Shown: positions 3,302-31,178, numbered from the stretch's first letter. The stretch is 31,729 nt of DNA from a virus (IMGVR_UViG_3300045988_181180); one strand, 5' to 3'. The notes: generated from the letters alone by a model not told the origin. Numbers and translations are program-made.

Positions 3302-3604
3302 TTAATCTTGCTCTATTAGTTTAACAATCTGACAATATACCCCTGGCACCAAGGAAGCCTTGGCGACCTCTTTGATCATGGTTAAGTCTTCGGTCGTACA
3401 CTCGACCTCACTTGGTTTAGTGTGCATCTGCACACTCAGGTTGTAGGCTCTCTTAAGAGACTCATCATCAGCCTTGACGCTGTTATTGCTTCCGTTGAAC
3501 AGATGAAGTCCGAGCACCTCATTCATCATCTGAGGCTGTCCGTTGCTGTCTGTCATCACCCCGCCCCTGTAGTTACGGATGGCGACCTTAAAATTTCTTT
3601 TCAT
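3302..3604 (-). CDS. Hypothetical protein
   Basis: 100-aa ORF with ATG start, 18 nt downstream of the large 1159-aa gene. Confidence 0.45.
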   Translation of the reverse strand: MKRNFKVAIRNYRGGVMTDSNGQPQMMNEVLGLHLFNGSNNSVKADDESLKRAYNLSVQMHTKPSEVECTTEDLTMIKEVAKASLVPGVYCQIVKLIEQD

Positions 3605-3622
3605 ATCTGTCTAAGTTTAAAA

Positions 3623-6600
3623 TTAATATGCGTGGTTCAGCTTGCGCGCTGTGTATTTGGTCGTGTAGTCACTCACCTTGTTGCCCATGGTTGAGTTATA
3701 GACCAGCAGGAACGTCGCACTGTCGCCCTGTCCCATCTCTATGTAATCTTTGTTGCCGCAGTTCTCATCGAGAATCAAAGGTAACTCCTCTTTGTTCCAT
3801 GCGTAGGAATCGCTTTTGTCTTTGATCTTGTTGCGCCCATAAATGAAGAAGTTTGTCGTGCCTGGCTCAGCGACCACCGTAAATGTCACGGCGAAGTTGG
3901 TAGATGAGCCACAGCCTAATGCGCTGCGCACCTCAGACAGTGTTGGCAGCGTTATGCCGCTTGACGAGACGTAGCTGTAGATGAGCCAGACGTTATTCTC
4001 AGAAATCTTGGCATAGCCATTATAGATGGTGTTTTTTGTGCTAAGCGCATATCTGCTATACTTATATCCACCTATCCATCCATTGAGTACGCCATTGCCA
4101 GCACCTGTGAAAGCAAAATTATAGGCACCGTTTTTAGCCGAGAGTATGGCTGCGATATTGTAACCAAGCCCCCACCAGTCGCTGCTGTCCTCATTTTCGA
4201 ATCGAGCCACCGCACGCTGTCCTGATGACGCTGGTAGTACGTTGCCACCGATGCCCGCAAAGCATTTATGGGTATCGTTGCGAAATATGATGTATGCATC
4301 ATTGGTAAATGGGTCGTTTGTCAGACCCGTGCCCTGGATAGTGAATCCAGCGATCTTGCCCGCCAATGCCTCCATGGAGCCATCTTTGTTGATTTTGAAA
4401 TTGCTGTTGGCCGTGACCACACCGTTAAGGTTGATTTGGTCTGCCGTGATGGTGGCAGAGGAGATGCCGTTGGCAATCATTGTCTTGATGGTAGCCTCGG
4501 ATAGAATCTTGCCATCGACACCCTCGATTTTTGTAGTCAGCGCATTGTAGTCTGCCGTCACAAGCAAGCCACCTTTGTTTTTGAGCGTGCCATCGGCATT
4601 GAATCGCTCGCTCATCAGGGCGTTGTAGTCAGCGGTGGTGATAAGATAGCTCGTATCTTTGAGCTTGCCATTGGCATCGAAACGAGCAACTGCCGAAGAC
4701 CACGAATCGGCGTTTTGACTGACCAACGATATAGTCGGACCATAATCGTTGCGTATGTCTGAGCCTACGCTGTCGGCGTGTCTCCTGGCTTCGGCAACGG
4801 AACTGTTGAGGGCATTGTAGTTGTCAGACATAGTCCCTTGCAAAGTGTTTTTGGCTGCATTCAGCTCGTCTTTTGTCGCAGCCTTGCCCACCGTGGTATT
4901 GATGCCATTGACCGTTATCTTTAACTCAGCGAGTGCCGCCTTGGTGCCGTTGGCAGTATTGGTGACGCTCTCGACACGTGCAGTGATGCTGTCGATGTCG
5001 GTGTAGATGCCAGAAATTTTCTCGTTTGTGCTATCCTGCCAGGTGTTGATGAGGTCGATGCGACCTGCCTCTATCTCTATTCTTGACGAGAGTGTTGTGT
5101 TGAGTTCGCCGTATCTCTTATCGACATATAGGCGTATTGCCTCTTTCTCAGCGTCCAGCTCGATGCCGAGCTGAGTTGTGGTACCATTGACCTTGTCGAT
5201 GTTTTGTCCCAGCAGCTTGATGTTTTTGGCCGTCTGAAGTATTTGTGTCGAGACGGTCTTGCTCAGGTTGTCGAGCGGCTCGTCGGTGATGGTGAGCAGC
5301 GCGACGTAGATGTCTCCTGTATATCGGAGCACGAAGTCGCCGGTGCCATTCCACTTGCCATTTAGCTCTACCGTCTGCCACTCTGCCGAGTATGGCACGC
5401 TGACGCTCTGGGCTGACAGGTCGTTGGTCTTGCCTTCGACAGCCTTGCAACCCTCGAAGCCAAAGGTGAGGGTGCCAGCAGTCTTGGCGTAGATGCGAGC
5501 ACTTATATATAAGGTGTCTTGCACCTCGGTGTAGTCATCGCCAGTGGTGTTCATGCCATCCTCGCCTTTTTCTGCCGATGGCTGGGTATATTCCTTGTGG
5601 GTACCGGGTTTGCGGATGAGATCATTGGCTTGTTTGATGCCGCTGTCCTGTATGTGCAGCATGTTGCGACCCTCGTTGTTGTCGATGCTCACTCGGTGGT
5701 TGCCACTCACGGTGGCGGCACCATTGACCATGACAGGTAAGCCATTGGCATCGACCCAGAACTGGGACTCGTCTGTATCGTCGATGGTCCAGCCATCAAT
5801 GAGCTGCTCATCGTTATAGCCTATCGCCGTCAGAAACTGACCGTTATGGAGGTAGTTGTTCTCCTCTGTCGCCTCGTAGGAGGTCTGTGCGAAGCGGGTG
5901 GCGAACTGGTTCTGCAGCATCTGTATTTTGGTGTCGATGCTCTCACCTGTGCGGCGGAGCACGAAGTCGCCCGTGGCGTAGAGGTTCTGCAGGAACTCAC
6001 CGAAGCCTGATAGTGCACCGAAGAGTGGATGGGTGATGCCCCGTAAGTTGCCGAGGCGACCTTTGAGCGCATTGTCTGGGTCTGTCTTGAGACCATAGAT
6101 GATGTCCATGTAGGGCGTATCGCTGCCCACAGTCATCATCTGTATGATGCCCTTGCGGTCGGGGTCGGTGAGGTTGTCGACCCTAACAAAAGTGTCTCGC
6201 TTGGTGATGAGCTGCTCTGCGGTGGCACCCTCCATCGATGAGGTGAAGTTCTTGAACTTGACCCATGCTAGCATATCCTCGCCACTGCCCTCGCTGCCCA
6301 CCTCTGTCACGATAAGCTCGTATCGCTTGGTGACATAGTGATTGTTTTCGGTGGAGGGCATGCCATTGTACTGCTGCACCATCACGTAGTCATCCTTGCG
6401 GAATGGGTTGTACATCCTGCCCTCGTGGGTGTCGAGATAGACCCTGCCTGTCTCTGGATCGTAGTGGTCAACCTCTAGCATCGCCGTGAAGATGCGGTTG
6501 TCATTCTCGCCCAAGAGTTGGGAGATAATCATCTCGAAGATGCGCATGGTACCACGCACGATGAGATTATCGAGCTCTAGACCATACCTATTCTCTTGCA

Positions 6601-7154: not shown

Positions 7155-7613
7155 CTAGATCGGTGTGCCGAACATCTGCTTGAAGATGTCTGCCATCAGT
7201 CCCTGGTACTCATCGCCATAGAAGTAGCCCTCCATGTCGTTGAGCTTCATGATGGAGGCGTAGTACTTGCGATTGAACCATGGACGGCGCTGTCGTGGCT
7301 CGCCGAGGTTGTGCTTGGCACGGTACTCAGGGTCGAGGAACTCTAGGTCGCCGGGGTTGCCATGGTAATAGCCATTGCCTGTGCCCGTCTCTTGGTAGAG
7401 ACCGTAGAGCAGGAACTTGTGGGCTATCTGGCGAGAGGAACCGCCAAAGGATGTGGCTTGGACAGAGCTGAAGAGGGCACCGGTATGTCGGATGCGATAG
7501 TGGATGATTTTCTCTTTCCAGATATGCACCATCTCCTCTGCCCATCCTCGCTCGTAGGCGTAGATGTCCTCTTGTGAGACGGGTTGCTTGATGTCATTCG
7601 TTCCATTCCTCAT
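7155..7613 (-). CDS. Hypothetical morphogenesis protein
   Basis: 152-aa ORF with ATG start, overlaps the upstream gene by 20 nt. Confidence 0.5.
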   Translation of the reverse strand: MRNGTNDIKQPVSQEDIYAYERGWAEEMVHIWKEKIIHYRIRHTGALFSSVQATSFGGSSRQIAHKFLLYGLYQETGTGNGYYHGNPGDLEFLDPEYRAKHNLGEPRQRRPWFNRKYYASIMKLNDMEGYFYGDEYQGLMADIFKQMFGTPI

Positions 7614-8124
7614 AATTATACTCCAGGTCTAGTGGCTCGCTCACGTCAAGATGGAACTCGACGCCTGTGAGACCGTTGATGAAATAGGCACCTATCTCTC
7701 GGCTGTCTATCTGGTCGCTGAGGGTGTAGGTGTTATAGTTGTCTTGCCAGTTGTATTTGTCGATGACAATCTTGCTCAGGAACTGTCGGAATATCTTGCG
7801 GCAGGTGTTGAGCTTCTCTTGTCGGTCGTTCATGTCGAACTGTTTGTATCGCATGAGAATCCACACGGTATAGGTCATCACCTTGCGATAGCTGCCATCG
7901 CCGTTGATGGCGACGTTGCCCTCGTTGGTGTCGTCGATGACCACGAAGTTTTTGCTCTTCGCCATATTCTGTAGCATGCCCTCAAACGAGGCAGGGGTGC
8001 TGCAGGTGGTTGGAGTGAAGCCAAGCTCGGAGGTGAGCTTGTTTTGGCGGGTGAGGTCTCTAAAGTAAGAGAAGGCATCGAACCCCACCTGAGTGTCGGG
8101 AGTCTTAACATCTGTACTGATCAT
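7594..8124 (-). CDS. Hypothetical morphogenesis protein
   Basis: 176-aa ORF; ATGA start/stop overlap with the upstream gene at 8121..8124, indicating translational coupling. Confidence 0.5.
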   Translation of the reverse strand: MISTDVKTPDTQVGFDAFSYFRDLTRQNKLTSELGFTPTTCSTPASFEGMLQNMAKSKNFVVIDDTNEGNVAINGDGSYRKVMTYTVWILMRYKQFDMNDRQEKLNTCRKIFRQFLSKIVIDKYNWQDNYNTYTLSDQIDSREIGAYFINGLTGVEFHLDVSEPLDLEYNYEEWNE

Positions 8125-12489: not shown

Positions 12490-12513
12490 GGAAGGAAGGG
12501 GAGAAAATAAAAA

Positions 12514-12542
12514 TACCTGATTGTCATCACGACAACCAGGTA
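12514..12542 (-). terminator. Intrinsic-type terminator after accessory operon A
   Basis: Stem TACCTG-a-TTGTC / GACAA-c-CAGGTA (11 bp with one mismatch, 5-nt loop), followed on the minus strand by TTTTTATTTTCTCC (12501..12513). Confidence 0.5.
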
Positions 12543-12635
12543 TCGACTCATGGAGCTGACCACGCCTTGTTAAGCCTAAGGCTCCATTCCGAGACTGTTT
12601 TATGTTGTAAATGAAAAAAAATGTGCTTGTCTTGC

Positions 12636-12947
12636 TTACTCTTCGGGCTGTGCGCAGTTGATTATCCAGACGAGTCTGCCACCCTCGACAGACTTCATCT
12701 TGAAGCCGTGCTCGACCATGTACTCGGTGATGACGGGGATGGGAGCGACGACCATGCCGCTGATGGCCTCTTGTATATCTTTGGAGGATAGGAAGTCAAC
12801 GCATTGGCTGTATGGGTCATCGCCCGGTGTGTCGCCCTCGAAGTAAGCGTCGAGCGCCATGCGCACATAGTCGATCTTGCTCTCTTGCTCTGACTGTTGC
12901 TGCTCGTCGCTGTTAGCACTGAAGCCCATCACACGCATACGTTTCAT
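12636..12947 (-). CDS. Hypothetical acidic small protein (accessory operon A, gene 3)
   Basis: 103-aa ORF; ATGA overlap with the upstream gene at 12944..12947. Confidence 0.45.
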   Translation of the reverse strand: MKRMRVMGFSANSDEQQQSEQESKIDYVRMALDAYFEGDTPGDDPYSQCVDFLSSKDIQEAISGMVVAPIPVITEYMVEHGFKMKSVEGGRLVWIINCAQPEE

Positions 12948-13213
12948 GCCTCACCTCCTTTCGTCTCCAGTGCTATGTTGATGGTCTTGAAGAGCTTGCT
13001 CATGTGGTCGAAGTTGTTGAGCATGAGTAGCACTTTGTCGGCACCGCCTAGGTCTTCGACACAGTTGGTCACCACCTCGTCTGAGATAAGCACCTTTTTG
13101 ACTTGCTCTAGGTACTCGATGAAGTAGCTGAGCTGGTTGACATCCATCATTTCTACGAGCGCATTCCAGACCTCTGCTGTCATGTGCATATTTGTTGCGT
13201 TGTTTGTGTTCAT
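12944..13213 (-). CDS. Hypothetical small protein (accessory operon A, gene 2)
   Basis: 89-aa ORF; ATGA overlap with the upstream gene at 13210..13213. Confidence 0.45.
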   Translation of the reverse strand: MNTNNATNMHMTAEVWNALVEMMDVNQLSYFIEYLEQVKKVLISDEVVTNCVEDLGGADKVLLMLNNFDHMSKLFKTINIALETKGGEA

Positions 13214-13575
13214 GCTACGACTCCTCCCATCAGATAACCACCAAAGAAAACCACTGCCATGAAGGCTGCAAAGCCTAGTGTGGCCTTGACCACCTCGCCG
13301 TAGGTCACGCTCTCGTCGCAGAGTGCGGTGAAGGTCTCGCTCTTGGTCTTGGCGAGCTTCTTGATTTCACACTTGAGGGTATTGATACCCTCCTCTACGC
13401 TGATGCCTGCAGGTCTCACCTGCGCATCACTAATTAAAATTGAATTCTGCATAATTGCCATCTTATAACCATTATAGACCGACCTTGATGTATAAATACA
13501 ATGGTGGCGGTCACATTCACCGTTGGTTATAAGATGGTAGCTTTCCCAGCGAAGGGCAAGTATCTTACGGATCAT
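13210..13575 (-). CDS. Hypothetical small protein with a C-terminal hydrophobic helix (accessory operon A, gene 1)
   Basis: 121-aa ORF ending in ...ATLGFAAFMAVVFFGGYLMGGVVA, a probable tail-anchored transmembrane segment. An alternative in-frame ATG at 13461 would give 83 aa. Confidence 0.45.
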   Translation of the reverse strand: MIRKILALRWESYHLITNGECDRHHCIYTSRSVYNGYKMAIMQNSILISDAQVRPAGISVEEGINTLKCEIKKLAKTKSETFTALCDESVTYGEVVKATLGFAAFMAVVFFGGYLMGGVVA

Positions 13576-13599
13576 GCAACCGCCATATTGAAAAGACCT

Positions 13600-13619
13600 T
13601 TTTCCCGCTGCCGGGAAAA
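13600..13619. terminator. Hairpin between accessory operons B and A (possible bidirectional terminator)
   Basis: 8-bp perfect stem TTTTCCCG / CGGGAAAA with a 4-nt loop; flanking sequence is only moderately T-rich. Confidence 0.4.
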
Positions 13620-13854
13620 TGATACTTTATAGGCATAAAAAAAGCCCACGGCGTGAAGCCTAGGCGAAACAGTCGCCATCGCTGAGTAGATTACTACTAT
13701 CTTATAACCGATGGCAAAAGTACGAAGAATAATTGGAACCGCCAAAAAAAAAGCGAGAAATTTTGAAATAAATGACTTTTTTATGTTTTAGAGCATAAAA
13801 CAAGGGGGTGAGGAACGAAAAAGCCCCGGATGCTCACGCACCCGAGGCTGACAG

Positions 13855-14247
13855 TTATTTTTGGAAATAAACTTTTAAAGGGATTGAATTCTCCACATTG
13901 CCAATTTTGAAAGAGAACTGATAGTTGCCCTCTGCAGGGAACTGGAGGTCGGAGAACTCAAAGATGAAGTTGCTGAAGAGAAACTCATCTGAAGGGTGTG
14001 GCTCAATCTTGGAATTGATGGGCTGGCCAAGAATCATCTTGCCAGTGCTCATCTCTGTAACCTCTGCCGAGAACTCTTGCTGAAGTTTGCTTTCCTCGCT
14101 GTTCATCTTAACTCTCGCTACCATGAAGAGGTTGTTCTTAGGCAGCGGTGCTTTTCTTACCACATAGTGGTCAAAAGTGCCCACGATGGTAAGTTTGCCG
14201 TCATTATCTTGTGCAAAGTCACACAATGCAAGAATATCTATGTTCAT
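13855..14247 (-). CDS. Hypothetical small protein (accessory operon B, gene 3)
   Basis: 130-aa ORF; 4-nt overlap with the upstream gene; lower GC than the structural genes by eye. Confidence 0.5.
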   Translation of the reverse strand: MNIDILALCDFAQDNDGKLTIVGTFDHYVVRKAPLPKNNLFMVARVKMNSEESKLQQEFSAEVTEMSTGKMILGQPINSKIEPHPSDEFLFSNFIFEFSDLQFPAEGNYQFSFKIGNVENSIPLKVYFQK

Positions 14248-14684
14248 TTTATATGTCCTTTAATGTTAGACTCGATAGCCGAGTGTTTGAAAAGTTTTTT
14301 ATAATTGTCGAATGAATATTTGAGTTTGCTCACCGTGCGCTTGTTTGTGCTCACTAGGTTGGCTCCATGTCTGCCAGAGATGCCTTCCTTGGTATTGAAC
14401 TTCAGAGAATTTCTTTTGGAGTCAACCCAAAGCCTGATGGCATCGCCTTGTATCTTGTCACCCACATTGCCATGGACGTTGAGATCTTCTCGTATTTTCT
14501 TGTCCTCTTCGTTGAGCTCAAGAGCTTCGGTGATTTCTACGGAACTATTTCGGTCTAGTTCGTATAATGTCATCTTTTTGCCCGTGATAGGTTCCTCTTT
14601 GAGTCCCTTCCACTCAGCCCTTCTGGCAATGACATCAGCTTTTTTGCCCTCTATGATTTCACCTTCTTTGATATATATAGCCAT
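14244..14684 (-). CDS. Hypothetical Lys-rich small protein (accessory operon B, gene 2)
   Basis: 146-aa ORF; its start overlaps the stop of the upstream gene at 14684. Confidence 0.5.
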   Translation of the reverse strand: MAIYIKEGEIIEGKKADVIARRAEWKGLKEEPITGKKMTLYELDRNSSVEITEALELNEEDKKIREDLNVHGNVGDKIQGDAIRLWVDSKRNSLKFNTKEGISGRHGANLVSTNKRTVSKLKYSFDNYKKLFKHSAIESNIKGHIK

Positions 14685-15112
14685 TATTGGATACTTTTTT
14701 GCATTGATTTTTCACTGAAAGAGAATACCTCAGCCATATCATCAGGCGAGGTGATGCTCATGAGCGATGGGCTGACCTCAAGAGCCACCTCAATGTCTTC
14801 AATGGAAGCATCTTTATCTTGTTTGATGATGTACTTATCCTCATGCTCTTCAATCTCTTTATCAAACTCTTCTTCGGTAATATTGCCGTCAAGCATTTCG
14901 CAATATAGTTTGAAGTAGTTGCGCTCACGTGTGCGGTTGTTAACGGCACGAGTCATCAACTCCTTGAGTCTGTCGGCAGTACTAATGTTGAAAAAGTTAG
15001 CCTTATTGGTAACACCAGCGAATGCAACCTTGCCAGTACCTTTGTCTTGTATAGCCACAACAGGGCTGCCATCAGTTTGGTATGTTGTATATATAGTCGT
15101 TGTATTGCTCAT
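14684..15112 (-). CDS. Hypothetical small protein (accessory operon B, gene 1)
   Basis: 142-aa ORF with ATG start; -7 box TATCTTTG at 15143..15150, 30 nt upstream, and a TTTG about 20 nt further upstream. Confidence 0.5.
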   Translation of the reverse strand: MSNTTTIYTTYQTDGSPVVAIQDKGTGKVAFAGVTNKANFFNISTADRLKELMTRAVNNRTRERNYFKLYCEMLDGNITEEEFDKEIEEHEDKYIIKQDKDASIEDIEVALEVSPSLMSITSPDDMAEVFSFSEKSMQKSIQ

Positions 15113-15142
15113 AATTCACATCCTGTTTATATTAACACGGTG

Positions 15143-15150
15143 CAAAGATA
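15143..15150 (-). promoter_or_regulatory. Candidate -7 promoter box (TATCTTTG) for accessory operon B
   Basis: Plus strand TGCAAAGATA, 30 nt upstream of the ATG at 15112; a TTTG on the coding strand lies about 20 nt further upstream (plus-strand CAAA at 15171..15174). Confidence 0.5.
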
Positions 15151-15299
15151 CGGTTATTTTTTGTAAATCGCAAATTTAATGATAAATTTAACAACAAAAA
15201 TTGCAATAAAGATTGGAAAATGGTATATAAAGAATGCTCGACCGCTTTTTGGCTCTTGCCAGACGCTTTCGCCGCAGGCGAAAATTTTTGGAAAATGAG

Positions 15300-15321
15300 G
15301 GGGAAGGTTTTAGCCTTCCCC
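15300..15321 (-). terminator. Hairpin terminator downstream of the radC-like gene
   Basis: 8-bp perfect stem GGGGAAGG / CCTTCCCC with a 6-nt loop, 20 nt after the stop; T-rich on the minus strand afterwards. A second hairpin at 15267..15284 is followed by TTTTT on the plus strand. Confidence 0.5.
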
Positions 15322-15340
15322 TTACCTTATTATATATATA

Positions 15341-16024
15341 TTATAGCTTTCCTTTGTCGTGGTAGCTGTAGAAGCCATCCTCAGCCAAGATGATATGGTC
15401 CATCAAGAAAAGTCTCATCACCTCGCACGCCTTGGCTATCTTCTGCGTGAGCATATCGTCCGCCTTGCTCGGCTGCGTGCTGTTCGATGGGTGGTTGTGT
15501 GCCACGGCGATGATGGTTGCATTGTTGAGCACGGCTTCTTTCATTATCAGTCGAACGTCCACCGCTGTCTCGGTGATGCCTCCCTCGCTGAGCTTGGTGC
15601 ACTTTATCAGCCTAAAGTTTTGGTTCATCAGCACTACCCAAAAGCCCTCTGTCTCATTGCAGCCTATCATTGGGCGAAGATAGTTGTAGAGTGCCAGGCT
15701 GCTGCCTAGGTCGGTGTTTCTCGCTACCTTTTCCATTTGGTAGCGTCTGCCTAGCTCGATGGCTGCCTGTAGGGCTATCGCCTTGCAGTCTCCAATTCCT
15801 GGTACCACTTCCAGGTCTTCTATTCTCGCCTTGCCGATGTTGCGAAGCGAGTTGCCCATGATGTTATAAATCTGTCGTGCCTGCTCTTGGCTGTCCTTGG
15901 TACCTGCCCCTCTGTTGATTACCAAAGAAATCAAGTCAACGTTGGTAAGGGTGTCGAAACCTTGGTTATAGGCTCTGTACTGCGGTCTCTCCTCCATACA
16001 AAGATTGTTATAATTTTGTCTCAT
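15341..16024 (-). CDS. radC: RadC-like JAB/MPN-domain protein, full length with N-terminal helix-hairpin-helix
   Basis: 227 aa. Contains the family signature IAVAHNHPSNSTQPSKADDMLTQKI (HNHPS..PS..D) and an upstream HhH-like VPGIGDCKAIALQAAIELGRR. A hairpin terminator follows at 15300..15321. Confidence 0.8.
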   Translation of the reverse strand: MRQNYNNLCMEERPQYRAYNQGFDTLTNVDLISLVINRGAGTKDSQEQARQIYNIMGNSLRNIGKARIEDLEVVPGIGDCKAIALQAAIELGRRYQMEKVARNTDLGSSLALYNYLRPMIGCNETEGFWVVLMNQNFRLIKCTKLSEGGITETAVDVRLIMKEAVLNNATIIAVAHNHPSNSTQPSKADDMLTQKIAKACEVMRLFLMDHIILAEDGFYSYHDKGKL

Positions 16025-16039
16025 ATCTTTTGTTATTTG

Positions 16040-16564
16040 TTAGTTATACATTCTCTTTGTTCTCGCTAGGAACATCGCTCCCATCACTTGTGCGCCACAT
16101 TCGGCTAGCTCGTTGGCGAACTCTCGGGCGGTCGCTCCGCTCGTCACCACGTCGTCGAAGATGATGACTTTCTTTCCGCTGAAGTACTCTCTATCGAGTG
16201 CCACTCTGTAGTCGAAGCTCTCACACACTCTGTCTGTGCTGAAGTGCTTGGCTGTGCGCTCTCCATAGATGGAAATGTGCTCGTTTCCGTTCTGTACCTT
16301 TGCGCCTTGGCTCACCTTTTGGGCGAAGCGAGAAAAGCGCTTGGTGTACTTCTTTGAGTTGGCTGCTGGAGCGCAAACCATCACGAAGTCGCTGGCTTTG
16401 TCGCCATAGGTGTTGACGAAAGAGCTGACCACCATATCGGCAGCTGCGTCTGTCGCCCACTGCTTTCCATCCTTGAAGGCAAAGATGAAGTTTCTCACTT
16501 GCTCTGCTTGTGCTGAGCGGTCGAAACGCTTGGAGCTGTACTCGTAATAATTGAAAGTTTTCAT
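16040..16564 (-). CDS. Type I phosphoribosyltransferase-domain protein (ComF-like PRTase, lacks the ComF zinc-finger N-terminus)
   Basis: 174 aa with the PRPP-binding motif KKVIIFDDVVTSGATAREF near the C-terminus; 15 nt upstream of the radC-like gene on the same strand. Confidence 0.65.
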   Translation of the reverse strand: MKTFNYYEYSSKRFDRSAQAEQVRNFIFAFKDGKQWATDAAADMVVSSFVNTYGDKASDFVMVCAPAANSKKYTKRFSRFAQKVSQGAKVQNGNEHISIYGERTAKHFSTDRVCESFDYRVALDREYFSGKKVIIFDDVVTSGATAREFANELAECGAQVMGAMFLARTKRMYN

Positions 16565-17462
16565 ACGCTTAAAATTTTTATTCTAGCCAGAGGGAGGAAG
16601 GAGCTTTTTTATTTGAACTCGTCTTTGCCTGCCCGTCTGAGAGTTTTTTTTATTCTGTCCGTCGGTCGTTTTTGTCGCTTTTTACGGTGCGATGCAGACG
16701 AGCGGAGAAGAGGTATGAAAGCCAAGGAATTTTGCAAAAAGTTTATGGAAAACCGTCATCTCTGATTGCGGAAGGCTGCCGAAAAGTTTTTGGAAAATAG
16801 ATTTATCGGTACTTGGTGCATGCCGTCCGCCGTACCTTTGCACCCGAAAAAGAGATAATGACCGATGGATAACCGATAAAGGGAAAAGCTCTCGGACAGG
16901 AAAAGCGGGCAAAGAAAAGGCTCTGCCTTACCTTGGTGGTTAAGCCTTAGCGACGTTTGAGCGCCATCACGGTCACCACCGCTTGAAAATTCGCAAATTT
17001 TAACCCTAGCGTATGAAATGAAAGATGGAAAATTTGCGTCATCAAAAACACCATGTTTTTCAGACTTCAGGAGGAAAAACATACCTTGGAGCGATGAAAT
17101 CGCAGCATTTGGCAGGCTTCGACCCCGAGGTTGAAGATGCCAAATGTGTCGTTTTACGACAGGTTTTCCACACCCACGGATTGGAAAACCCCGATTTTAT
17201 CGTGGTTTTAGGGATTCAAAGGGAAAATAATTCCCCTTTGTCGGCGATAGCACCCCCCACCGCCCTACGCCCGAGCGCGCCTTCCGCCCCCTTGGAAAAG
17301 ACGGAATATGTAAAAGACCGTTAACGTTTTTGTAGGAATGTAAAAAGCCAAAAGGCACGAAAAAAGGGAACACGCTTCGCAGCGCACTCCCCTTATCGGC
17401 GGTCAAGCAAGAATGCCAGCCACCTAACTTATATAAGAATCGTACTATCTAAAGAAATCAAA

Positions 17463-19064
17463 CTATAGCATGGAACCCGTGGCGATGTAGCCATCAGCCT
17501 GAGGGTATTTCTCCATGCCAATCATGAGCGTGTCGTAGGCATCGGAGCCATCGGTGCGAGCCTCCAACTTATCCTCCTCGGTCTCAGCCAGCTTCTCGCC
17601 TCGCTTATCCTTCTTGCCGTTGTAGACCCCGGCCAGGCGGATGGAGATGAGCAGGTCTTCGTTGTTCTCGCTGTTGATCATCGAGCGATGCTCAGCCTTG
17701 CCGAGGAACATGCGGTTGAGCAGAAGCATCTTTTCGAGATGTCCCATCGGGTTGCCCAGATAGACCTCGTTGACATACCAGCCATGGTCGGTGAGGTAGT
17801 CGGTGATGAAGGTATGGAAGTCATCGTTCATCAGGGCGTAGTTGTTGCCCACGAAGGTGGAGTCGTAGTAGAAGTTGACCTCTTTGCACCGATGGTACTC
17901 ATAGTACTGCATGAACTTGTCGAGCAGGGCTGGCAGCTTCTCCTCATACTTCACGAAGATGCTCTTGAGGCAGCGTGCCTCGCCCCGCAGGTTGTCTTGT
18001 CCGACGGCTATCCAGTTGATGAGGGCGTTGGCATCGAAGGCGATGCAGAGCGGACGGTCGGGGTCAACGTCGGCATCCATTCTGGAATCTACATGCTTGA
18101 GCTTGTCGATGTCGTAGCCCAAGCCATCGAGGTAGGCGAGGTTGGGCGCCGTGTATAGGTTGGCATCCCTGAGGTTGGAGTAGAAGCCATCGAGCGAGAT
18201 GGAAGGTCGCTTGCACATGATGGAGGTCTGGAAGGTGAGGGCAGGGAGGTCTCGCTTCATCTGCTTGATGAACTCCATGCCGAGCACCTCGATGTTATAG
18301 ACCGATGAGTACTCTTTATAGAAGAGTGCCTTGGAGCGCAGTTGCGCCAGGAGCTGACCAATCTCTCGGAGTCGGCGCTGGGCATAGCCTGAGACATGGC
18401 CCGAGGTCTTGATGCGGTTGCGTATGTCATACTCCTCTACCACGAGCGAGGCGATGGCGTCGATGAGCTGCTGGTCGCAGTCTTTCTTGTAGTTGAGGAA
18501 CCAGGAGCCCTTCTTGGTCACGGGCATATCAGAGGTGATGAGCATGCCATGGTGGTAGTAGTGCTGGCCGAAGAGGTTGACGTTGCCTCGATTGGCAGGG
18601 AAGGTCTCGTCTTTGAGCTGTTCGAAGTTGATGAACTTCGCCTCGTCGATGTCGAGGTAGTCGAGCGAGAGGGAGTTGGAGGTACCCTTGCGGTCTTGCG
18701 AGATGATGGTACCGATGGAGCCGTTATAGAATGAGATGGTGTTCTCCCAGTTGCTGGGCGGTATGACCGGGTCGGGCCATCCCAGTTTTTTGGGAGGCTT
18801 GACCCCGATGAGATAATGCTTGCCCCGGTGGAAGCCCCATCGCTCCCAGTGCTGAAGCATCGACGGTATGGTGTTGGTGAGGCATCGCTTGGTGTTGGCG
18901 GATACGAAGCCGCCGTTGCTGCCAGGCATGCGCTGCATGTTGCGCAGGTTGAAGGTGGCGTGGAGAATGCTCTTGCCGATGCCTCGACCGCCCACGACCA
19001 CGTTGTCGCGGGCGGAGATGAGGTTGACCTCCATCTGGGCTGGGTTGAGATATTGATCTATCAT
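17463..19064 (-). CDS. Terminase large subunit
   Basis: 533 aa; Walker A VVVGGRGIGKSIL near the N-terminus and Walker B-like LDYLDIDEA; ATGA overlap with the upstream gene. Confidence 0.8.
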   Translation of the reverse strand: MIDQYLNPAQMEVNLISARDNVVVGGRGIGKSILHATFNLRNMQRMPGSNGGFVSANTKRCLTNTIPSMLQHWERWGFHRGKHYLIGVKPPKKLGWPDPVIPPSNWENTISFYNGSIGTIISQDRKGTSNSLSLDYLDIDEAKFINFEQLKDETFPANRGNVNLFGQHYYHHGMLITSDMPVTKKGSWFLNYKKDCDQQLIDAIASLVVEEYDIRNRIKTSGHVSGYAQRRLREIGQLLAQLRSKALFYKEYSSVYNIEVLGMEFIKQMKRDLPALTFQTSIMCKRPSISLDGFYSNLRDANLYTAPNLAYLDGLGYDIDKLKHVDSRMDADVDPDRPLCIAFDANALINWIAVGQDNLRGEARCLKSIFVKYEEKLPALLDKFMQYYEYHRCKEVNFYYDSTFVGNNYALMNDDFHTFITDYLTDHGWYVNEVYLGNPMGHLEKMLLLNRMFLGKAEHRSMINSENNEDLLISIRLAGVYNGKKDKRGEKLAETEEDKLEARTDGSDAYDTLMIGMEKYPQADGYIATGSML

Positions 19065-23027: not shown

Positions 23028-24053
23028 TTATGCAAACTGATTTAAAACATCCAACACTTGATCTGAGCAGAAATCCTCGACCTTGGTGTCATCGACAGCA
23101 GTGTGCGTGTCGCCACCAGGCTCTCCCTCCAGATCCTTCACTTTATCCTTCAGGTCATCTCTCTCCTTTTCGAGATTCTTGACCTTAGTCTCTAACTCCT
23201 TCTTCTCGTCCTTGACCTTCTGAAGCTCTGTGTCTTTGTCGGTCACGGCCTTGGAGTCGGCAGCGATCTTATCCTCCAGTTTCTGCATCTGCTCCTGTGA
23301 GATTGTGCAGTTCTTTGCGGAATCTTCTGCCTCAATGCCCTCGATATTGAGGACATTGTTGATGTGAGTCCATTTTTTGATCATATTAATAATTTTATTT
23401 TGTGATTTATCTTTGCCGAATAATCGGTCGATGATGCTTGGCTTTTTATCATACCAGGAGTTAACAACCTCTGGGAGAACAGGAAGGTTGTTGTACTTGA
23501 TGAAGTCTTGCGTCTGCTCGGTGATGTCGGCAGGCTTGCCATCCATGGCTTCATCGACGAGACCCAGTTCGATGCACTCATCGACGGTGTGCCACATCGC
23601 TTCGGACATCACCTTGACGATGTCCTCGTGCTTCTTGCCCGAGCGATCGCAGTAAACGTTGGCGATGATGTTGTCGATTTTCTGCTGGTTCTCTTGCTGT
23701 TTTTGAAGTTGCTCGATGAGCGAGCCTATCTGCTCCTCGTTGAGCGCAGACCACACAAACTGCTCGGTAGAGCACTTGTGTACCAGGAGCAAGCTATATT
23801 TGCTCATGCGAATCTTGCTGGCACCCATCGCACAGATGGTGGCAGCAGAGGCAGAGAAGCCCGCCTGGAAGTCAACGGTCACGTCGCCATGGGACTTGAA
23901 CATCTGACAGATGGCGAGACCTGCGGAGACCTCGCCACCCAAGGAGTCGATGGCAACATCGACGTGCTTATCTTTGTTGGCCTTAAGAACATCGCGAACC
24001 ATGAGCTTGGTCCACGAGCCAATATATCCTGTGATAGAAATTTGGTACTTCAT
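23028..24053 (-). CDS. ClpP-family prohead protease with C-terminal coiled-coil (scaffold-like) extension
   Basis: 341 aa. N-terminal half has ClpP-like motifs (IDSLGGEVSAGLAICQ and FSASAATICAMGA); C-terminal third is a charged heptad-rich coiled coil. -7 box 23 nt upstream. Confidence 0.7.
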   Translation of the reverse strand: MKYQISITGYIGSWTKLMVRDVLKANKDKHVDVAIDSLGGEVSAGLAICQMFKSHGDVTVDFQAGFSASAATICAMGASKIRMSKYSLLLVHKCSTEQFVWSALNEEQIGSLIEQLQKQQENQQKIDNIIANVYCDRSGKKHEDIVKVMSEAMWHTVDECIELGLVDEAMDGKPADITEQTQDFIKYNNLPVLPEVVNSWYDKKPSIIDRLFGKDKSQNKIINMIKKWTHINNVLNIEGIEAEDSAKNCTISQEQMQKLEDKIAADSKAVTDKDTELQKVKDEKKELETKVKNLEKERDDLKDKVKDLEGEPGGDTHTAVDDTKVEDFCSDQVLDVLNQFA

Positions 24054-24113: not shown

Positions 24114-24533
24114 TTATTGGATGATTTGGAGCGGTTTTATCACGTCAGACCATGTCACGGTATAAGTGATGAGCGATGAGTCTGTGTGTGAGCTTGGCAT
24201 ATTTTCGGTGCGAGTGAGCACCGGGAAGGGACGCTGGTCTCTGCCCAGAAGATAGGCGCACCCATCGGCGGTAGTCACCTTGTAGGCGAGCGGGTGAACC
24301 TCTGAGTCTATCTGCTCGCTCGACTTGAAGGTGAGCTTTGAAGTGAAAATGCGAACCTTGGACTCAATTTTGTCGGTGATTTCACAACTCGACGGCATTT
24401 TGCACTTTATCTGCTGGAAGACTGCACTTGCAGGAATGATGCAAAGATTTTTGGCTGGGAAGATGACAGCCTTGAGGTCATCGGCTCTCACGACCTCAAT
24501 CTTGATGATGTTTTTGATGTATGACATAAGCAT
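24114..24533 (-). CDS. Hypothetical protein
   Basis: 139-aa ORF with ATG start (alternative ATG at 24527). Confidence 0.45.
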   Translation of the reverse strand: MLMSYIKNIIKIEVVRADDLKAVIFPAKNLCIIPASAVFQQIKCKMPSSCEITDKIESKVRIFTSKLTFKSSEQIDSEVHPLAYKVTTADGCAYLLGRDQRPFPVLTRTENMPSSHTDSSLITYTVTWSDVIKPLQIIQ

Positions 24534-24612
24534 GAAAATTTATCTTTTTGTTTGGAATCGACGGATATTTCGGTTTTGTTCGGAGTTGTTTGCAGAGACG
24601 GAAAAATTTGTA

Positions 24613-25197
24613 TTAATCTTTGCTAAATCTTGTTGTAGATGTTAAATTTACGCCTCTTTTTGCGTGTTGATCACGCATTCTGTAGAAACATTGGCGTACG
24701 GTATCCTCGTAATCGATGCCAATGCCATGCTGTTCGCACCATGCCGAAATGAGCGATGAAAGCTTGCATGAGCGGTCGGCGATGTCTTTGAGCGAAGCCC
24801 AGAGATCCATCTTGAAGAGGTCGGAAATCATCTCTTTGACGGCACGTCTGGCACGTGGCCCGAGGTAGTTGAACTCTCGCACAGGCTTAGCCTTGGAGTC
24901 AGGCAGCTCGATGGCAAGATACTCTTCGGGATGGGTGAGCCATCGGCTCTGCTCGAACTCCTCGTCGTGGAAGGTATGCTTGACACTTTGGTGCAGTTGG
25001 CTGGCATCAGCCTGCTGCATCTCTTGGATGTTCTCTTGGTCGATAGGCGATAGGTTGACAACGGGAGGTCTGCTGGTGAACTTGCGGAGCACAGCCACCT
25101 CGTTGCCGATGGCAGGGAAGACCACTGGGTTGCCATAAGCTCGGTAAGCCCATTGTCTGATGTGGGTAGGAACTTTGATGTAAACAATTGGATTCAT
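24613..25197 (-). CDS. Hypothetical protein, first gene after the iteron region
   Basis: The track start at 25209 is a TTG; the ATG at 25197 sits 20 nt downstream of the -7 box at 25218..25225, matching the spacing seen at the other promoters. Confidence 0.45.
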   Translation of the reverse strand: MNPIVYIKVPTHIRQWAYRAYGNPVVFPAIGNEVAVLRKFTSRPPVVNLSPIDQENIQEMQQADASQLHQSVKHTFHDEEFEQSRWLTHPEEYLAIELPDSKAKPVREFNYLGPRARRAVKEMISDLFKMDLWASLKDIADRSCKLSSLISAWCEQHGIGIDYEDTVRQCFYRMRDQHAKRGVNLTSTTRFSKD

Positions 25198-25217
25198 ATA
25201 GCTATGCAATTTTCGTG

Positions 25218-25225
25218 CAAAGATA
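25218..25225 (-). promoter_or_regulatory. Candidate -7 promoter box (TATCTTTG)
   Basis: Plus strand TGCAAAGATA, 20 nt upstream of the ATG at 25197. Confidence 0.45.
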
Positions 25226-25340
25226 CAAAGAAAATTTGAAATAACTAACGATAATCGGTAAAAACTAACTTTTATCAGTAAATTTGGTGTGATATAATTT
25301 CGTCCGAAAAGTTTGTATTTTTGTATCGTACAAACAAGGC

Positions 25341-25590
25341 TCTGTAACTAGCTGATAATCAATACTATTTTTGTGATACAATTTTCTGATACAGAAATTG
25401 TAACTCTTTAGCTTTTGTAACTTGGGGTTTTGTCGAGGTCGAAGACCTGTAGGAGAAGGGGCTTGTTACAAACTTGAAAAACTTTGTAACCGAGTTGTAA
25501 CGCAACTTTGTAAACATCGGCATGGCGGCTTAACTCACTCTTTTTTAGTTATTTACCTCTTTTGCTAACATTATGTTACAGAGTTACAAA
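25341..25590. repeat. Iteron-like cluster of the octamer TTTGTAAC (4 perfect and 5 one-mismatch copies, both orientations); candidate origin or regulator-binding array
   Basis: Perfect copies at 25414..25421 (+), 25465..25472 (-), 25483..25490 (+), 25583..25590 (-). One-mismatch copies at 25341..25348, 25397..25404, 25494..25501, 25507..25514 and 25575..25582. A given 8-mer is expected about 0.008 times in 250 bp on both strands. Confidence 0.65.
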
Positions 25591-25686
25591 GGATTTGTAT
25601 AAAATAAAAGAAAGGGGTGTGGGGAAAACGATGGCACGGGGCGTGAAGGAGGTTAGAAAAGGCCCATCGAGACACCCAGGACACCC

Positions 25687-25700
25687 CCATTGGCCAATGG
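25687..25700. repeat. Perfect 14-bp palindrome CCATTGGCCAATGG
   Basis: Self-complementary 14-mer in the GC-rich part of the noncoding region between the iterons and the primase terminator. Confidence 0.6.
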
Positions 25701-25741
25701 AGGGGTAGCGAGACGAAACATCGCCCATGGCAACGAAAAAA

Positions 25742-25770
25742 GGGAGCGACGGCCAATGCGCATCGCTCCC
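25742..25770 (-). terminator. Intrinsic-type terminator downstream of the primase-helicase gene
   Basis: 8-bp perfect stem GGGAGCGA / TCGCTCCC with a 13-nt loop, followed on the minus strand by TTTTTT (plus-strand A-run 25736..25741). Confidence 0.55.
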
Positions 25771-25951
25771 TCGTAACATGGGAAAAGAATTATAAATCAG
25801 CAAAAATCTGCCTATGAAATCAGCCCTCGTCTGCTTGCAAAAATAGTGAAAAATTGCTTGAAAATTTAGCCGAAAATATTTGCATAATTCAGATATTTTT
25901 TGTACCTTTGCACTATAACTTGGGGCTATCTATTCTATTATATATGGATGG

Positions 25952-28941: not shown

Positions 28942-29074
28942 TTGCAAGGCGAGTTCAAAACAAAATACTTATTTTTTGTCGCATAGAGCCTTTGGCTCAT
29001 ACTCGACGTATCTGTGGAGAGGGTGGCAGTATCTGCCATTGATGCAGTTGCTGCCATCCTCGCACTTTTGGCAT

Positions 29075-29386
29075 TTAATCGGTGGCATCGACTTTTATAT
29101 CAAAAGTGTCGTTGTGTAGCAACATCTTGGTATGAACATAAATTGGTTTTTGTTCATCCTCATCCCATCCAACCTCTCGGAAGTCTCTGCCATCGATATA
29201 GCATTCGGTGGCGTATCCTTTGTCGGTCCACTCTACGATATGGTCTTTGTCGAACTCGTCTCTTGCTGGCACTGTAGCCAGAACACGAGTGCCAAACTTG
29301 CTGTAGCTAATCTCGTGTATAGTGACGTTAGGGTATTTCTCGATGATTGCCTCCTCGATAGATTTTGTCTTAGTCTTCTTTTTCAT
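29075..29386 (-). CDS. Hypothetical early protein
   Basis: 103-aa ORF with ATG start in the early operon; overlaps the upstream gene by 17 nt. Confidence 0.45.
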   Translation of the reverse strand: MKKKTKTKSIEEAIIEKYPNVTIHEISYSKFGTRVLATVPARDEFDKDHIVEWTDKGYATECYIDGRDFREVGWDEDEQKPIYVHTKMLLHNDTFDIKVDATD

Positions 29387-29576
29387 TGTTCTTCATTCTG
29401 AATTTAACAATACCTGCCACGATGCCGTCTTCTTGGTCATCGTAGAACATATTTAAATCTGTTGTGCCCTTATGGAGTGTACCATAGGACACGTCAACGG
29501 CAACGCTGGCATCCTCGAAATCTTTGAGGATGGCTTGAAGCTGTTTGCTGTTGCATCTGACTGTCATTTTTCCCAT
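29370..29576 (-). CDS. Hypothetical early protein
   Basis: 68-aa ORF with ATG start; 13-nt overlap with the upstream gene. Confidence 0.4.
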   Translation of the reverse strand: MGKMTVRCNSKQLQAILKDFEDASVAVDVSYGTLHKGTTDLNMFYDDQEDGIVAGIVKFRMKNNEKED

Positions 29577-29782
29577 GATCCATCATTGATAATTTGCTCG
29601 ATGACCTCTCTGTCGATGGCACGCCAAGTATTGGTGCGCATCTTATTGTAGATGGTGTTCTGGCTCATCTCTAGCTTTAGCTGCAGTGTGGCCATGAACT
29701 TGCTTCTCTTTTTGCGTGGTATCTCATTATACCATGCGAGGATGATATTTTCATCATCATTTTTTTTGTTTTTTTCTTGCAT
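29564..29782 (-). CDS. Small basic protein, possible Cro/Xis-like DNA-binding protein; first gene of the early operon
   Basis: 72-aa ORF with ATG start, divergent from the HTH regulator gene; -7 box TAACTTTG 28 nt upstream. DNA-binding role is inferred from the basic composition and position. Confidence 0.45.
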   Translation of the reverse strand: MQEKNKKNDDENIILAWYNEIPRKKRSKFMATLQLKLEMSQNTIYNKMRTNTWRAIDREVIEQIINDGSWEK

Positions 29783-29799
29783 ATTCCAATATTTATTAT

Positions 29800-29807
29800 T
29801 AATTTTG
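29800..29807 (+). promoter_or_regulatory. Candidate -7 promoter box (TAATTTTG) for the HTH regulator gene
   Basis: Only TAnnTTTG match in the divergent intergenic region on the plus strand; 96 nt upstream of the ATG at 29904, so it would imply a long leader. Confidence 0.3.
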
Positions 29808-29810
29808 TTG

Positions 29811-29818
29811 CAAAGTTA
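29811..29818 (-). promoter_or_regulatory. Candidate -7 promoter box (TAACTTTG) for the early operon
   Basis: Plus strand CAAAGTTA, 28 nt upstream of the ATG at 29782; back to back with a plus-strand box at 29800..29807. Confidence 0.45.
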
Positions 29819-29903
29819 GTAATAAAAATCGGAAAATACTAACGAAAGTAAGTAAAAACACCTATGATAATAGGTTAAATATTATTAATTAAATTAGATA
29901 ATT

Positions 29904-30281
29904 ATGTTTAATGGTCAGATAATCAGAAAGTTAATGTCGGATGCTGGCTTAACTAAAAAAGAGTTTGAAAGACGTATGTTCGGTAGTAAATCGACCGACC
30001 TCAACCATTTGGAAAAAGCGAAGAATCTTCGCAGTGACACTCTCGAACGTCTGCGTGAGGTGTTGAAGTGCTCTATGGATGACTTCTTTACAGCACCCTC
30101 ATGGGCTGAGAACGGAAAGGGGACAGTCGTAGGCTCTAACAATGTGCTGTCAACAGTAGCCATCGGCAACGAAGTGATGGAAGCCCAATATCTCAAGGAG
30201 TTGCTCTTGGAGAAGGACAAACGCATCAGCACTTTGGAAAATTATATCAAGCTTCTGGAGACTAACTTAAATAAGGACTAA
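29904..30281 (+). CDS. HTH (XRE/Cro-CI-like) transcriptional regulator with C-terminal coiled coil; repressor candidate
   Basis: 125 aa. N-terminal segment SKSTDLNHLEKAKNLRSDTLERLREVLKCSMDDFF resembles XRE-type HTH domains. Only plus-strand gene of the element and divergent from the early operon. Confidence 0.6.
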   Translation: MFNGQIIRKLMSDAGLTKKEFERRMFGSKSTDLNHLEKAKNLRSDTLERLREVLKCSMDDFFTAPSWAENGKGTVVGSNNVLSTVAIGNEVMEAQYLKELLLEKDKRISTLENYIKLLETNLNKD

Positions 30282-30494
30282 TACGAAACATAATTCGTAA
30301 GATGAATCCTTATATATAATAAGGTGTATAAAATATATCGTATAATCTCAGCAGTGATATCCAACTCGTTAGTCTTGCCGCCGCAACAATGCAAATCGGG
30401 TAGAAAGTTGTTCTTCAACATTCTATCCGATATTTTTTTTATCCCTTTATTTATAATTTAACACTAAATATTTGCATATATCGAATAAAACAAC

Positions 30495-30502
30495 TAATTT
30501 TG
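30495..30502 (+). promoter_or_regulatory. Candidate -7 promoter box (TAATTTTG) for the TetR-family gene
   Basis: TAATTTTG 49 nt upstream of the ATG at 30552. Confidence 0.3.
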
Positions 30503-30551
30503 CACACAGATATTTTTATGTGCAATCATTTTAATTAGGAGGGACTTCAAT

Positions 30552-31148: not shown

Positions 31149-31178
31149 TTTATTGATTATTAATTAAATATAAAAGAA

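Follow-up and report, generated by a model that had tools for sequence, protein, structure and literature searches.

A phosphoribosyltransferase-RadC cassette of Segatella and Bacteroides phages is preceded by a conserved hairpin that may act as a single-strand promoter

What occupies the interval between the large terminase gene (TerL) and the next virion genes of the viral sequence IMGVR_UViG_3300045988_181180, and do the genes found there belong together? This sequence of 31,729 nt (the whole stretch of DNA that was analysed, hereafter the window) comes from a temperate-looking Segatella (Prevotella) copri phage. The initial annotation described positions 12636-17462 as an accessory island with a phosphoribosyltransferase (PRTase)-domain gene, a RadC-like gene and two operons of three small genes each (s142, s146 and a gene for a DUF6941 protein; s121, s89 and s103), and suspected that these might form a single combination. 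Its description of the DNA holds well: the eight open reading frames (ORFs) are present, all on the minus strand (Table 1), with start/stop overlaps of 1-4 nt in both trios, terminator-like hairpins lie 3′ of the genes for RadC, the DUF6941 protein and s103, and promoter boxes of the Bacteroidota type lie upstream of s142, s121 and v353.

The 900-bp stretch between TerL and the PRTase gene had been put down as noncoding, and it holds no convincing ORF; it is not a mere spacer, however, and contains the most unusual feature of the locus. Its 898 nt consist of a backbone part of ~480 nt and a leader of ~420 nt that belongs to what we call cassette A, the PRTase and RadC genes. We collected 72 IMG/VR loci via TerL and mapped the window proteins onto each; 56 IMG/VR relatives have TerL proteins 92-100% identical to that of the window, presence/absence counts were taken from 54 complete close relatives, and a Segatella copri metagenome-assembled genome (locus L073) carries an identical PRTase in the same arrangement. 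By blastn, the leader was found in every locus with the PRTase-RadC pair and in no complete locus without it; the first ~100 and ~50 nt of the leader segment are kept in two loci that have no PRTase (L052 and L004, query to 586 and 532, respectively). Between phages whose PRTases are ~50% identical the leader is conserved in blocks, and at the nucleotide level the hairpin that it contains (see below) is better conserved than the coding sequence.

Within the leader lies a long imperfect hairpin whose best fold is on the plus strand, the template strand of the PRTase gene. The minimum free energy (MFE) is -109 kcal/mol (z -4.6) on the plus strand vs -73 kcal/mol (z -1.1) on the minus strand, and folds restricted to Watson-Crick pairs hold 56 would-be G·T wobbles on the plus strand vs 12 on the other. 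A profile of the hairpin searched with nhmmer matched 33 of 33 loci that have the pair and none of 21 that lack it. In an alignment of 21 distinct sequences (A3), with slid partners and 500 shuffles as controls, 96% of the cells of the consensus stem are paired vs 46-55% with slid partners, 13 pairs are changed on both sides vs 3-6 with slid partners, and none of the shuffles reaches the observed values. Equivalent hairpins (z -4 to -10) are found in families that cannot be aligned with that of the window, namely phages with TerL 52% identical, two groups of Bacteroides phages, and conjugative elements, such that each lineage examined has one. The hairpin before cassette A measures ~210-300 nt. 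The A8 run just outside the hairpin base is invariant in alignments A2 and A3 and is followed, in order, by a short hairpin, AAAAGCTCC, AGAATAAAA and the ATG; the same order of elements recurs in Bacteroides phages with ~30% PRTase identity and in the conjugative elements. Raw folding energy of the DNA in sliding windows was discarded as a hairpin finder, its signal being dominated by G+C so that the hairpins were not singled out.

The -7 box of Bacteroides and Flavobacterium (Bacteroidota) promoters reads TAnnTTTG. As an internal control, boxes of this kind stand on the gene strand 30-150 nt upstream of the s142, s121 and v353 operons. The 898 nt before the PRTase gene contain no gene-strand -7 box and exactly one box on the opposite strand (TACCTTTG, 16833-16840), which sits on the gene-distal arm of the hairpin. 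This placement is shared by 20 loci that represent ~7 sequence lineages and include two conjugative elements: a template-strand box TAnnTT[TC]G is present on the distal arm in 20 of 20, on the antisense strand 253-291 nt from the PRTase ATG, vs a gene-strand box in 0 of 20, and the background rate gives a chance expectation of 0.027 per slot. A scan for sigma-70 promoters was set aside as not informative for this host.

The distal arm of the folded template strand corresponds to the non-template strand towards the gene, and therefore RNA polymerase would be sent into PRTase-RadC by the box only from the folded strand. The predicted start of transcription is base-paired to positions ~7 nt past the box (A3 columns 125-129 with 326-330) and lies within the invariant block GTAAAAAGCGA. 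Between an invariant CTTG and the box are 17 nt that form helices 8-10, the best-covarying of the hairpin, such that the presumptive promoter spacer is base-paired. Two terminators (~17358-17394 and 16908-16927) separate the PRTase gene from the TerL operon.

This arrangement is reminiscent of the Frpo/ssi promoters of F, ColIb-P9 and pESBL, hairpins of ~300 nt that rebuild promoter boxes, are active as single-stranded DNA (ssDNA) but not as double-stranded DNA (dsDNA), and fall into several classes without sequence homology to one another (PMC11541004, PMC12672017). Common to both are an imperfect hairpin of ~200-300 nt directly upstream of an operon, promoter boxes rebuilt in the stem of the template strand with mismatches at the box nearest the start site, the lack of a duplex promoter for the operon, several copies per conjugative element (as in L080), and neighbours that include SSB and anti-restriction genes (PMC11541004, PMC12672017). 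The two are likened by design, not by sequence comparison, and Rfam gave no match. They differ in that the host here is a member of the Bacteroidota, with a TAnnTTTG box instead of sigma-70 -35/-10 elements, and in that the hairpin is found beside TerL in tailed dsDNA phages (the window and at least six phage lineages), for which no ssDNA transfer stage is known. A conjugative context is plausible only for L080 and L136, which carry TraG, ArdC, SSB and Toprim and in which no oriT or relaxase was located. In L080, a Phocaeicola conjugative element, there are two paralogous long hairpins (3560-3983 and 7500-7943) in the same orientation, each with a template-strand TACCTTTG box and a T8 run, one before a DUF2958/DUF1281_C operon and the other before a PRTase-SLOG pair, with SSB between them; this suggests a family of such hairpin elements in Bacteroidales conjugative elements. 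With somewhat less than even confidence, we propose that Bacteroidota possess an ssDNA-promoter class of their own, which tailed Prevotella/Bacteroides phages have long kept to gate PRTase-RadC.

Both protein assignments made in the initial annotation were borne out by Pfam profile searches, which matched Pribosyltran, above cut-off, and PF04002. Among PADLOC profiles the PRTase matches ShosT (1.6e-9, residues 9-171), PsyrT (9e-9) and, weakly, PRTase_III-A (2.4e-4). Its best NCBIfam match is ComF (TIGR00201, 1.6e-7), at 31.5 bits vs a cut-off of 233.55. Residues F136, D137, D138 and T141 of the loop FDD(V/L)xT, which would bind phosphoribosyl pyrophosphate (PRPP), are invariant down to 34% identity (alignment A4). 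By sequence inspection the protein has only three cysteines and no CxxC pair, and thus lacks the N-terminal Cys4 zinc finger of the ComFC type. RadC matches NF000642 (1.1e-51) with 175.5 bits, slightly under the 180-bit cut-off, and TIGR00608 with 152.9 bits, over the cut-off of 133.85; the JAB signature E...HxHx7Sx2D is present as HNHPSNSTQPSKAD. As had been noted, the pair corresponds to no named system: PADLOC gives only single-protein matches, to ShosT and PsyrT.

RadC begins 15 nt downstream of the PRTase gene in the window, the two genes abut or share one base in relatives, and they are adjacent or overlapping in every phage lineage found (TerL 27-100% and PRTase 30-100% identical). The pair lies downstream of TerL after a gap of 0.5-1.6 kb (~0.5 kb in the family with 52% TerL identity, 0.75-1.1 kb in most others), and this TerL-anchored position is kept in phages whose TerL is 52-58% or 27-28% identical and in Bacteroides phages with ~30% PRTase identity. 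The cargo downstream of the pair is variable (holin, DUF4160/DUF2442, HicA, DUF5053). Indeed, in the Bacteroides phages L125 (7404-8093), L135 (8347-8976) and L121 (7340-7900) the slot right after RadC is filled by DUF4160/DUF2442, by a HicA toxin and partner, or by a holin, and therefore the hotspot starts after RadC in these phages. Toxin-antitoxin-like neighbours, which the initial annotation had mentioned for RadC-like genes of E. coli cryptic prophages, are thus found in relatives. Its view of the PRTase-RadC pair as sporadic horizontal cargo does not fit this synteny with TerL across deep divergence, nor a near-average base composition. The G+C content of the PRTase (0.51) and RadC (0.50) genes equals the window mean, against 0.56 each for TerL and v353, so that the lower G+C ascribed to the island applies to the s142/s146/DUF6941 triad (0.42) and to the noncoding parts (0.45-0.46) and not to this pair; s89 and s103 stand at 0.52.

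No intact PRTase-only locus was seen among the loci found, the sole exception being a locus (L062) with a C-terminally truncated PRTase and a RadC fragment, and two loci have RadC only. Five metagenomic proteins (P0026, P0043, P0047, P0050 and P0075) join PRTase to RadC through differing in-frame deletions, all of which retain the JAB domain while at least one removes the PRPP loop; we rejected these joined proteins as Rosetta-stone evidence, since either repeated decay of the PRTase or variation from assembly may lie behind them. Taken at face value, the lack of intact PRTase-only loci, the RadC-only loci and the JAB-retaining deletions hint that the PRTase may be toxic alone and that its partner may neutralize it.

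Conjugative elements of Phocaeicola-like genomes (L080 and L136) carry the same PRTase clade (34-35% identity), there with a YpsA-SLOG protein, which matches DprA weakly, encoded next to it and with SSB, Toprim primase, TraG and ArdC as neighbours. This PRTase plus YpsA/DprA-like SLOG pair has the architecture of ShosTA. Since the partner is a SLOG protein in conjugative elements and RadC in phages, RadC replaces the SLOG/DprA-like partner in phages. ComF, RadC and DprA are competence proteins that handle ssDNA. ShosT is toxic only with its DD motif and the ability to bind PRPP, and its antitoxin ShosA, a DprA-like protein, acts by binding ssDNA and via RecA (PMC11961720, PMC12961424). Cassette A shares with ShosTA and PsyrTA the two-gene operon with the PRTase first, the intact PRPP-binding DD loop, and a partner drawn from the competence-type, ssDNA-linked set of proteins. 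It differs in that the partner is RadC (HhH plus JAB) and not DprA/SLOG, which is found only in L080 and L136, in that the PRTase has 174 aa without a pyrophosphatase or RecQ domain, and in being phage-encoded beside TerL, with toxicity or defence by the pair putative. With the ComFC/DprA/RadC competence set it has in common ComF as the best curated match of the PRTase, a full-length RadC, a DprA-like alternative partner, and the link of all three to incoming ssDNA; the score, however, is far under the ComF family cut-off, the N-terminal zinc finger is missing, and the context is that of mobile elements and not of chromosomal competence (chromosomal ComF-like genes were found separately, in L085 and L086). 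Polyvalent proteins of invasive elements use the same PRTase and RadC domain families, have been proposed to act at DNA entry and have solo versions in phages (Iyer et al. 2017, PMC5512222). In cassette A, unlike in polyvalent proteins, the domains are separate genes in a fixed pair with a dedicated hairpin, and neither the pairing nor the hairpin appears in that paper.

Comparison of gene neighbourhoods across related phages bears out the suspicion that the region is accessory: what fills the interval from TerL to the next virion genes varies among them, and this cargo hotspot holds at least three separate units; in other relatives unrelated cassettes occupy it. Among the 54 complete relatives, 15 have neither cassette A nor module B (the s142/s146/DUF6941 triad), 6 have only module B, 10 have only cassette A and 23 have both. 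Because all four combinations occur, the two are not one system, and the proposed single combination of PRTase, RadC and three small proteins falls apart. The second trio, which had been counted as cargo as well, is mostly backbone, s89 and s103 following the virion genes. The hotspot is like the defence hotspots of P2 and P4 in offering a fixed slot between conserved genes to swappable cassettes of lower G+C with their own promoter and terminator, and unlike them in that no cassette here makes up a complete PADLOC defence model. The resulting cassette map shows experimenters which genes belong together for cloning and which do not.

How might cassette A work? The explanation that we favour, to which we give about an even chance, is that it is a ShosTA-like PRTase with a DNA- or nucleotide-processing partner whose expression is gated by a single-strand promoter. 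Cassette A is a two-gene operon without an ordinary promoter, insulated from the TerL operon by two terminators. When the template strand is single-stranded and folded, the distal arm would supply the non-template promoter strand towards PRTase-RadC, and transcription would start near 16676-16682 and run on through the invariant A8 run; in duplex DNA the box would point away. Duplex DNA would thus yield no transcript of the operon, which would be switched on once the locus becomes single-stranded; candidate occasions are attack on injected DNA by host nucleases and helicases (resection or unwinding), rolling-circle intermediates and lagging-strand exposure. By analogy with ShosTA/PsyrTA, the PRTase might consume PRPP or make an aberrant nucleotide, and RadC might neutralize it or complete the reaction. 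The pair would probably serve in conflict or establishment, just when ssDNA is exposed.

Several points weigh against this explanation. Tailed dsDNA phages are not known to pass through an obligatory ssDNA stage on entry, which leaves the occasion for firing unexplained, and the promoter activity of the hairpin is something we infer. The -33 element is weak or variable, the window having CTTG at 17 nt and a second family TTTG at 13 nt; in L080 the box is largely base-paired and one of its copies faces a minus-strand restriction-modification gene; and in duplex DNA the box could drive a divergent plus-strand transcript. Composition alone predicts a wobble ratio of ~1.5-2:1, such that the observed asymmetry is only ~2-3 times what is expected, and it was counted in related sequences. 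The argument from PRTase-only loci never being seen rests on few RadC-only loci. E. coli ShosT has 424 aa, with an N-terminal pyrophosphatase/hydrolase domain fused to the PRTase (PMC11961720); the PRTase of the window lacks this domain, and its alignment with solved ShosT is restricted to the PRPP loop (E ~0.01; 0.009). Finally, the biochemistry of the RadC family is not established (PMC11981726, PMC5512222).

Other explanations have to be set beside it. That the PRTase, RadC and the adjacent small proteins act together as one composite accessory system is very improbable: the units do share a strand and adjoin in the window, as they do in 23 of the 54 relatives, but they are present or absent independently, each has a promoter and a terminator of its own, and other prophages carry the triad at different positions. 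Alternatively, cassette A could be a prophage ShosTA-like toxin-antitoxin (TA) or abortive-infection module expressed in the lysogen, in which case the hairpin would be a conjugative relic or a generic regulatory palindrome without a single-strand function. The hidden Markov model (HMM) matches to ShosT and PsyrT and the PRTase plus SLOG pairs of conjugative elements fit such a plain TA or defence module, as do the RadC-only loci in the face of no intact PRTase-only ones, the deletions that spare the JAB domain, the TA-like cargo nearby in relatives (HicA, DUF4160/DUF2442) and the loss of the cassette in ~40% of close relatives. We regard it as unlikely all the same. A vestige is hard to square with the hairpin because box and stems are maintained with compensatory changes in several mutually non-alignable phage-only lineages; no gene-strand -7 box was found from which the pair could be expressed in a lysogen; and the fixed place after TerL, with TerL identity down to 27%, is unlike that of module B and does not suit a sporadic moron.

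The hairpin might also act as RNA, whether as a 5′ leader, as a cis-antisense or divergent RNA (type I/III-TA-like) that controls translation or stability of the PRTase, or as a PRTase ligand like the multicopy single-stranded DNA (msDNA) of retrons. Covariation fits RNA equally well, the plus-strand -7 box is canonical and would work in duplex DNA, and the G-U wobble asymmetry favours the plus-strand fold. PRTase effectors of retron III-A are controlled by structured nucleic acid (PMC12746101), a weak PRTase_III-A match is seen here, and PyrR-type PRTases bind RNA (cited in PMC5512222). We nevertheless consider an RNA function a poor prospect, because a transcript started ~7 nt past the box would comprise the last 25-40 nt of one arm and would not contain the hairpin. 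Nor would such a transcript account for the promoter spacer being kept in pairing with the opposite arm; sense transcripts would meet two terminators before they reached the hairpin; no Rfam family matches it at E<=10; and a divergent transcript would have no consistent downstream target across phages and conjugative elements. As for a retron, there is no reverse transcriptase (RT) gene beside the pair, whose neighbours are TerL and module B, and no RT-sized ORF in the gap. A sense-strand 5′-leader RNA had itself been considered as the leading interpretation and was downgraded given the sense-strand z of -1.1 and a wobble asymmetry that favours the other strand. It is improbable, lastly, that PRTase-RadC serves nucleotide salvage or DNA processing in replication or packaging, with the hairpin as an sso/ssi-like priming site for the rolling-circle lagging strand that is only secondarily a promoter. 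Such housekeeping would be in keeping with the fixed synteny with packaging genes across deep divergence, the near-average G+C, the ssDNA-handling competence proteins ComF, RadC and DprA together with the NCBIfam ComF match, and the fact that Frpo primes DNA synthesis too (PMC12672017). The cassette and its hairpin are, however, missing from 21 of 54 otherwise near-identical phages and so are dispensable, the hairpin never occurs without the pair, and the same design before an unrelated DUF2958 operon in a conjugative element fits a promoter better than a phage origin.

Table 1 Features of the interval between TerL and the virion genes and of its borders, in positions of the window.
Feature	Position	Strand	Remark
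Large terminase (TerL), upstream anchor of the hotspot	17463-19064	-	PHROG 2 terminase large subunit
Strong intrinsic-terminator-like hairpin directly after TerL	~17358-17394	-	MFE fold, 14-bp stem GGGGAGUGCGCU/AGCGUGUUCCCU, then U6
Backbone noncoding segment, cluster of local hairpins	16984-17462	-	Conserved core TACATATTCCG...GCGYAGGGCGGTG
Leader, left part of cassette A	16565-16983	-	Travels only with PRTase and RadC
Second terminator-like hairpin, upstream of the long hairpin	16908-16927	-	Terminator scan
Long imperfect hairpin, core stem	16657-16868	+	Best fold on the template strand of the PRTase gene
-7 box TACCTTTG on the gene-distal hairpin arm	16833-16840	+	Central 6 nt in a 6x7 internal loop
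Predicted transcription start	16676-16682	-	Paired with positions ~7 nt past the -7 box
A8 run immediately outside the base of the hairpin (T8 in the template strand)	16644-16651	-	Invariant in A2 and A3
PRTase, 174 aa, ComF-like, PRPP loop VIIFDDVVTSGAT intact	16040-16564	-	Pfam PF00156, 4.5e-7, above cut-off
RadC, full length, UPF0758_N/HhH N-terminal domain and JAB with HNHPSx6SxxD	15341-16024	-	PF04002, 1.2e-35; PF20582, 7e-12
Terminator-like hairpin closing cassette A	15300-15321	-	Terminator scan
Two ordinary gene-strand -7 boxes (TAAATTTG, TATCTTTG), promoter of module B	15143-15178	-	Box scan
Module B, translationally coupled	13855-15112	-	s142 14684-15112, s146 14244-14684, DUF6941 13855-14247
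Terminator ending module B	13822-13849	-	12-bp stem and T-run
s121, small protein with hydrophobic C-terminus	13210-13575	-	Nearly universal in relatives, variable in sequence and position
s89 and s103, backbone genes directly upstream of v353	12636-13213	-	Same place in nearly all relatives
Terminator-like hairpin after s103	12512-12544	-	Terminator scan

Module B stands apart from cassette A as a mobile moron that brings its own promoter and terminator (Table 1). Its three genes are always found as a trio, regardless of cassette A, and in other prophages the triad stands beside lysis genes and an integrase (L127) or before ClpP (L130). In L127, a Prevotella prophage (530-1843 and 4573-5839), it lies 3′ of holin and amidase genes and 5′ of the integrase; a few genes further upstream there is a gene for a reverse transcriptase, which may stem from a diversity-generating retroelement. 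The small proteins had been described as free of recognizable motifs, and this stands for s142, s146, s121, s89 and s103, for which there was no match in the PADLOC, PHROGs and NCBIfam profile libraries, but not for the product of 13855-14247, which matches Pfam DUF6941 (PF22091, 6e-21) and for which an Ig-like model was obtained with low confidence. The AlphaFold2 (AF2) model of s146 has a pLDDT of 84 and found no match in PDB or BFVD.

The genes s89 and s103 are phage backbone and not cargo: their divergence parallels that of the virion genes, and the s103 family (cluster 1) precedes v353 even in phages with TerL 52% identical. We group s121 with them as a backbone gene; its gene-strand -7 box lies at 13715-13722. 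Against the GenBank phage collection, 11-20 kb gave a nucleotide match in the s121 region (13223-13586) alone, at 77% to the human gut phage MT835559, the phage family being otherwise missing from cultured-phage records. By tblastn, TerL matched the annotated TerL of Bacteroidota and Microcystis phages. The expectation that virion genes follow TerL holds with the qualification that some also lie upstream of it, for example a head protease gene at 23028-24053.

Every close relative has the backbone part of the gap (16984-17462), with 69-95% identity and irrespective of the cargo, and the core of this segment is kept in phages with TerL ~56-58% identical (alignment A5). The folding z of the segment is ~ -3.9 on both strands and it shows no codon periodicity; it could be a packaging site, a regulatory site or a small RNA. 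A 99-aa plus-strand ORF (17025-17324) recurs in many relatives with varying lengths and was rejected as a gene, showing neither codon periodicity nor third-position bias across 49 variants, so that it is probably not one. Minus-strand ORFs of 108-119 aa in the gap were likewise rejected, with no codon periodicity and with lengths that differ between loci. A scan for tRNA and tmRNA found none in the gap, and Rfam 15 gave no match at the gathering threshold over the whole window and, at E<=10 over 15200-17500, two chance-level matches (E 4.6 and 5.7) near 15217-15378, outside the hairpin.

Elsewhere in the window, stretches of low G+C (0.37-0.43) are also found at 24500-26000 and 29000-31729. 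Genes for a Cro/C1-type helix-turn-helix (HTH) protein (29904-30281), near the right end of the window, and for a regulator of the TetR family (30552-31148) lie in the latter stretch, which may be the lysogeny-control end or a host junction. Several -7-box matches are grouped at 25279-25366 (plus strand) and 25845-25878 (minus strand), in a low-G+C intergenic region that may be a divergent promoter region of the phage.

To our knowledge, the single-strand promoter device has so far been known from conjugative plasmids and not from tailed phages, and our searches of the literature on RadC plus PRTase systems, Frpo-like promoters in Bacteroides and ssDNA promoters in phages found no description of either part of cassette A. 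What would be new is a Bacteroidota version of ssDNA promoters in tailed phages, and a PRTase-RadC variant of the PRTase-SLOG theme of ShosTA and PsyrTA. The partner swap ties the RadC family to a PRPP-dependent enzyme and to the logic of ShosTA/PsyrTA, and the link offers a tractable assay for RadC proteins, whose biochemistry has gone unsettled for decades. If the favoured explanation is true, regulation of the Frpo type would extend to Bacteroidota, the dominant gut phylum, whose promoters are unlike those of sigma-70, and its signature (a long hairpin, a template-strand TAnnTTTG in an internal loop, and an A8-9 run) would find early or entry genes in Bacteroidales mobile elements. It would also mean that tailed phages pass through or sense a single-stranded state of this locus and respond through a pair of enzymes that depends on PRPP, which would be a genetic switch triggered by damage or entry, of a kind not described for phages, and would raise the question of when phage DNA is single-stranded and how the phage responds.

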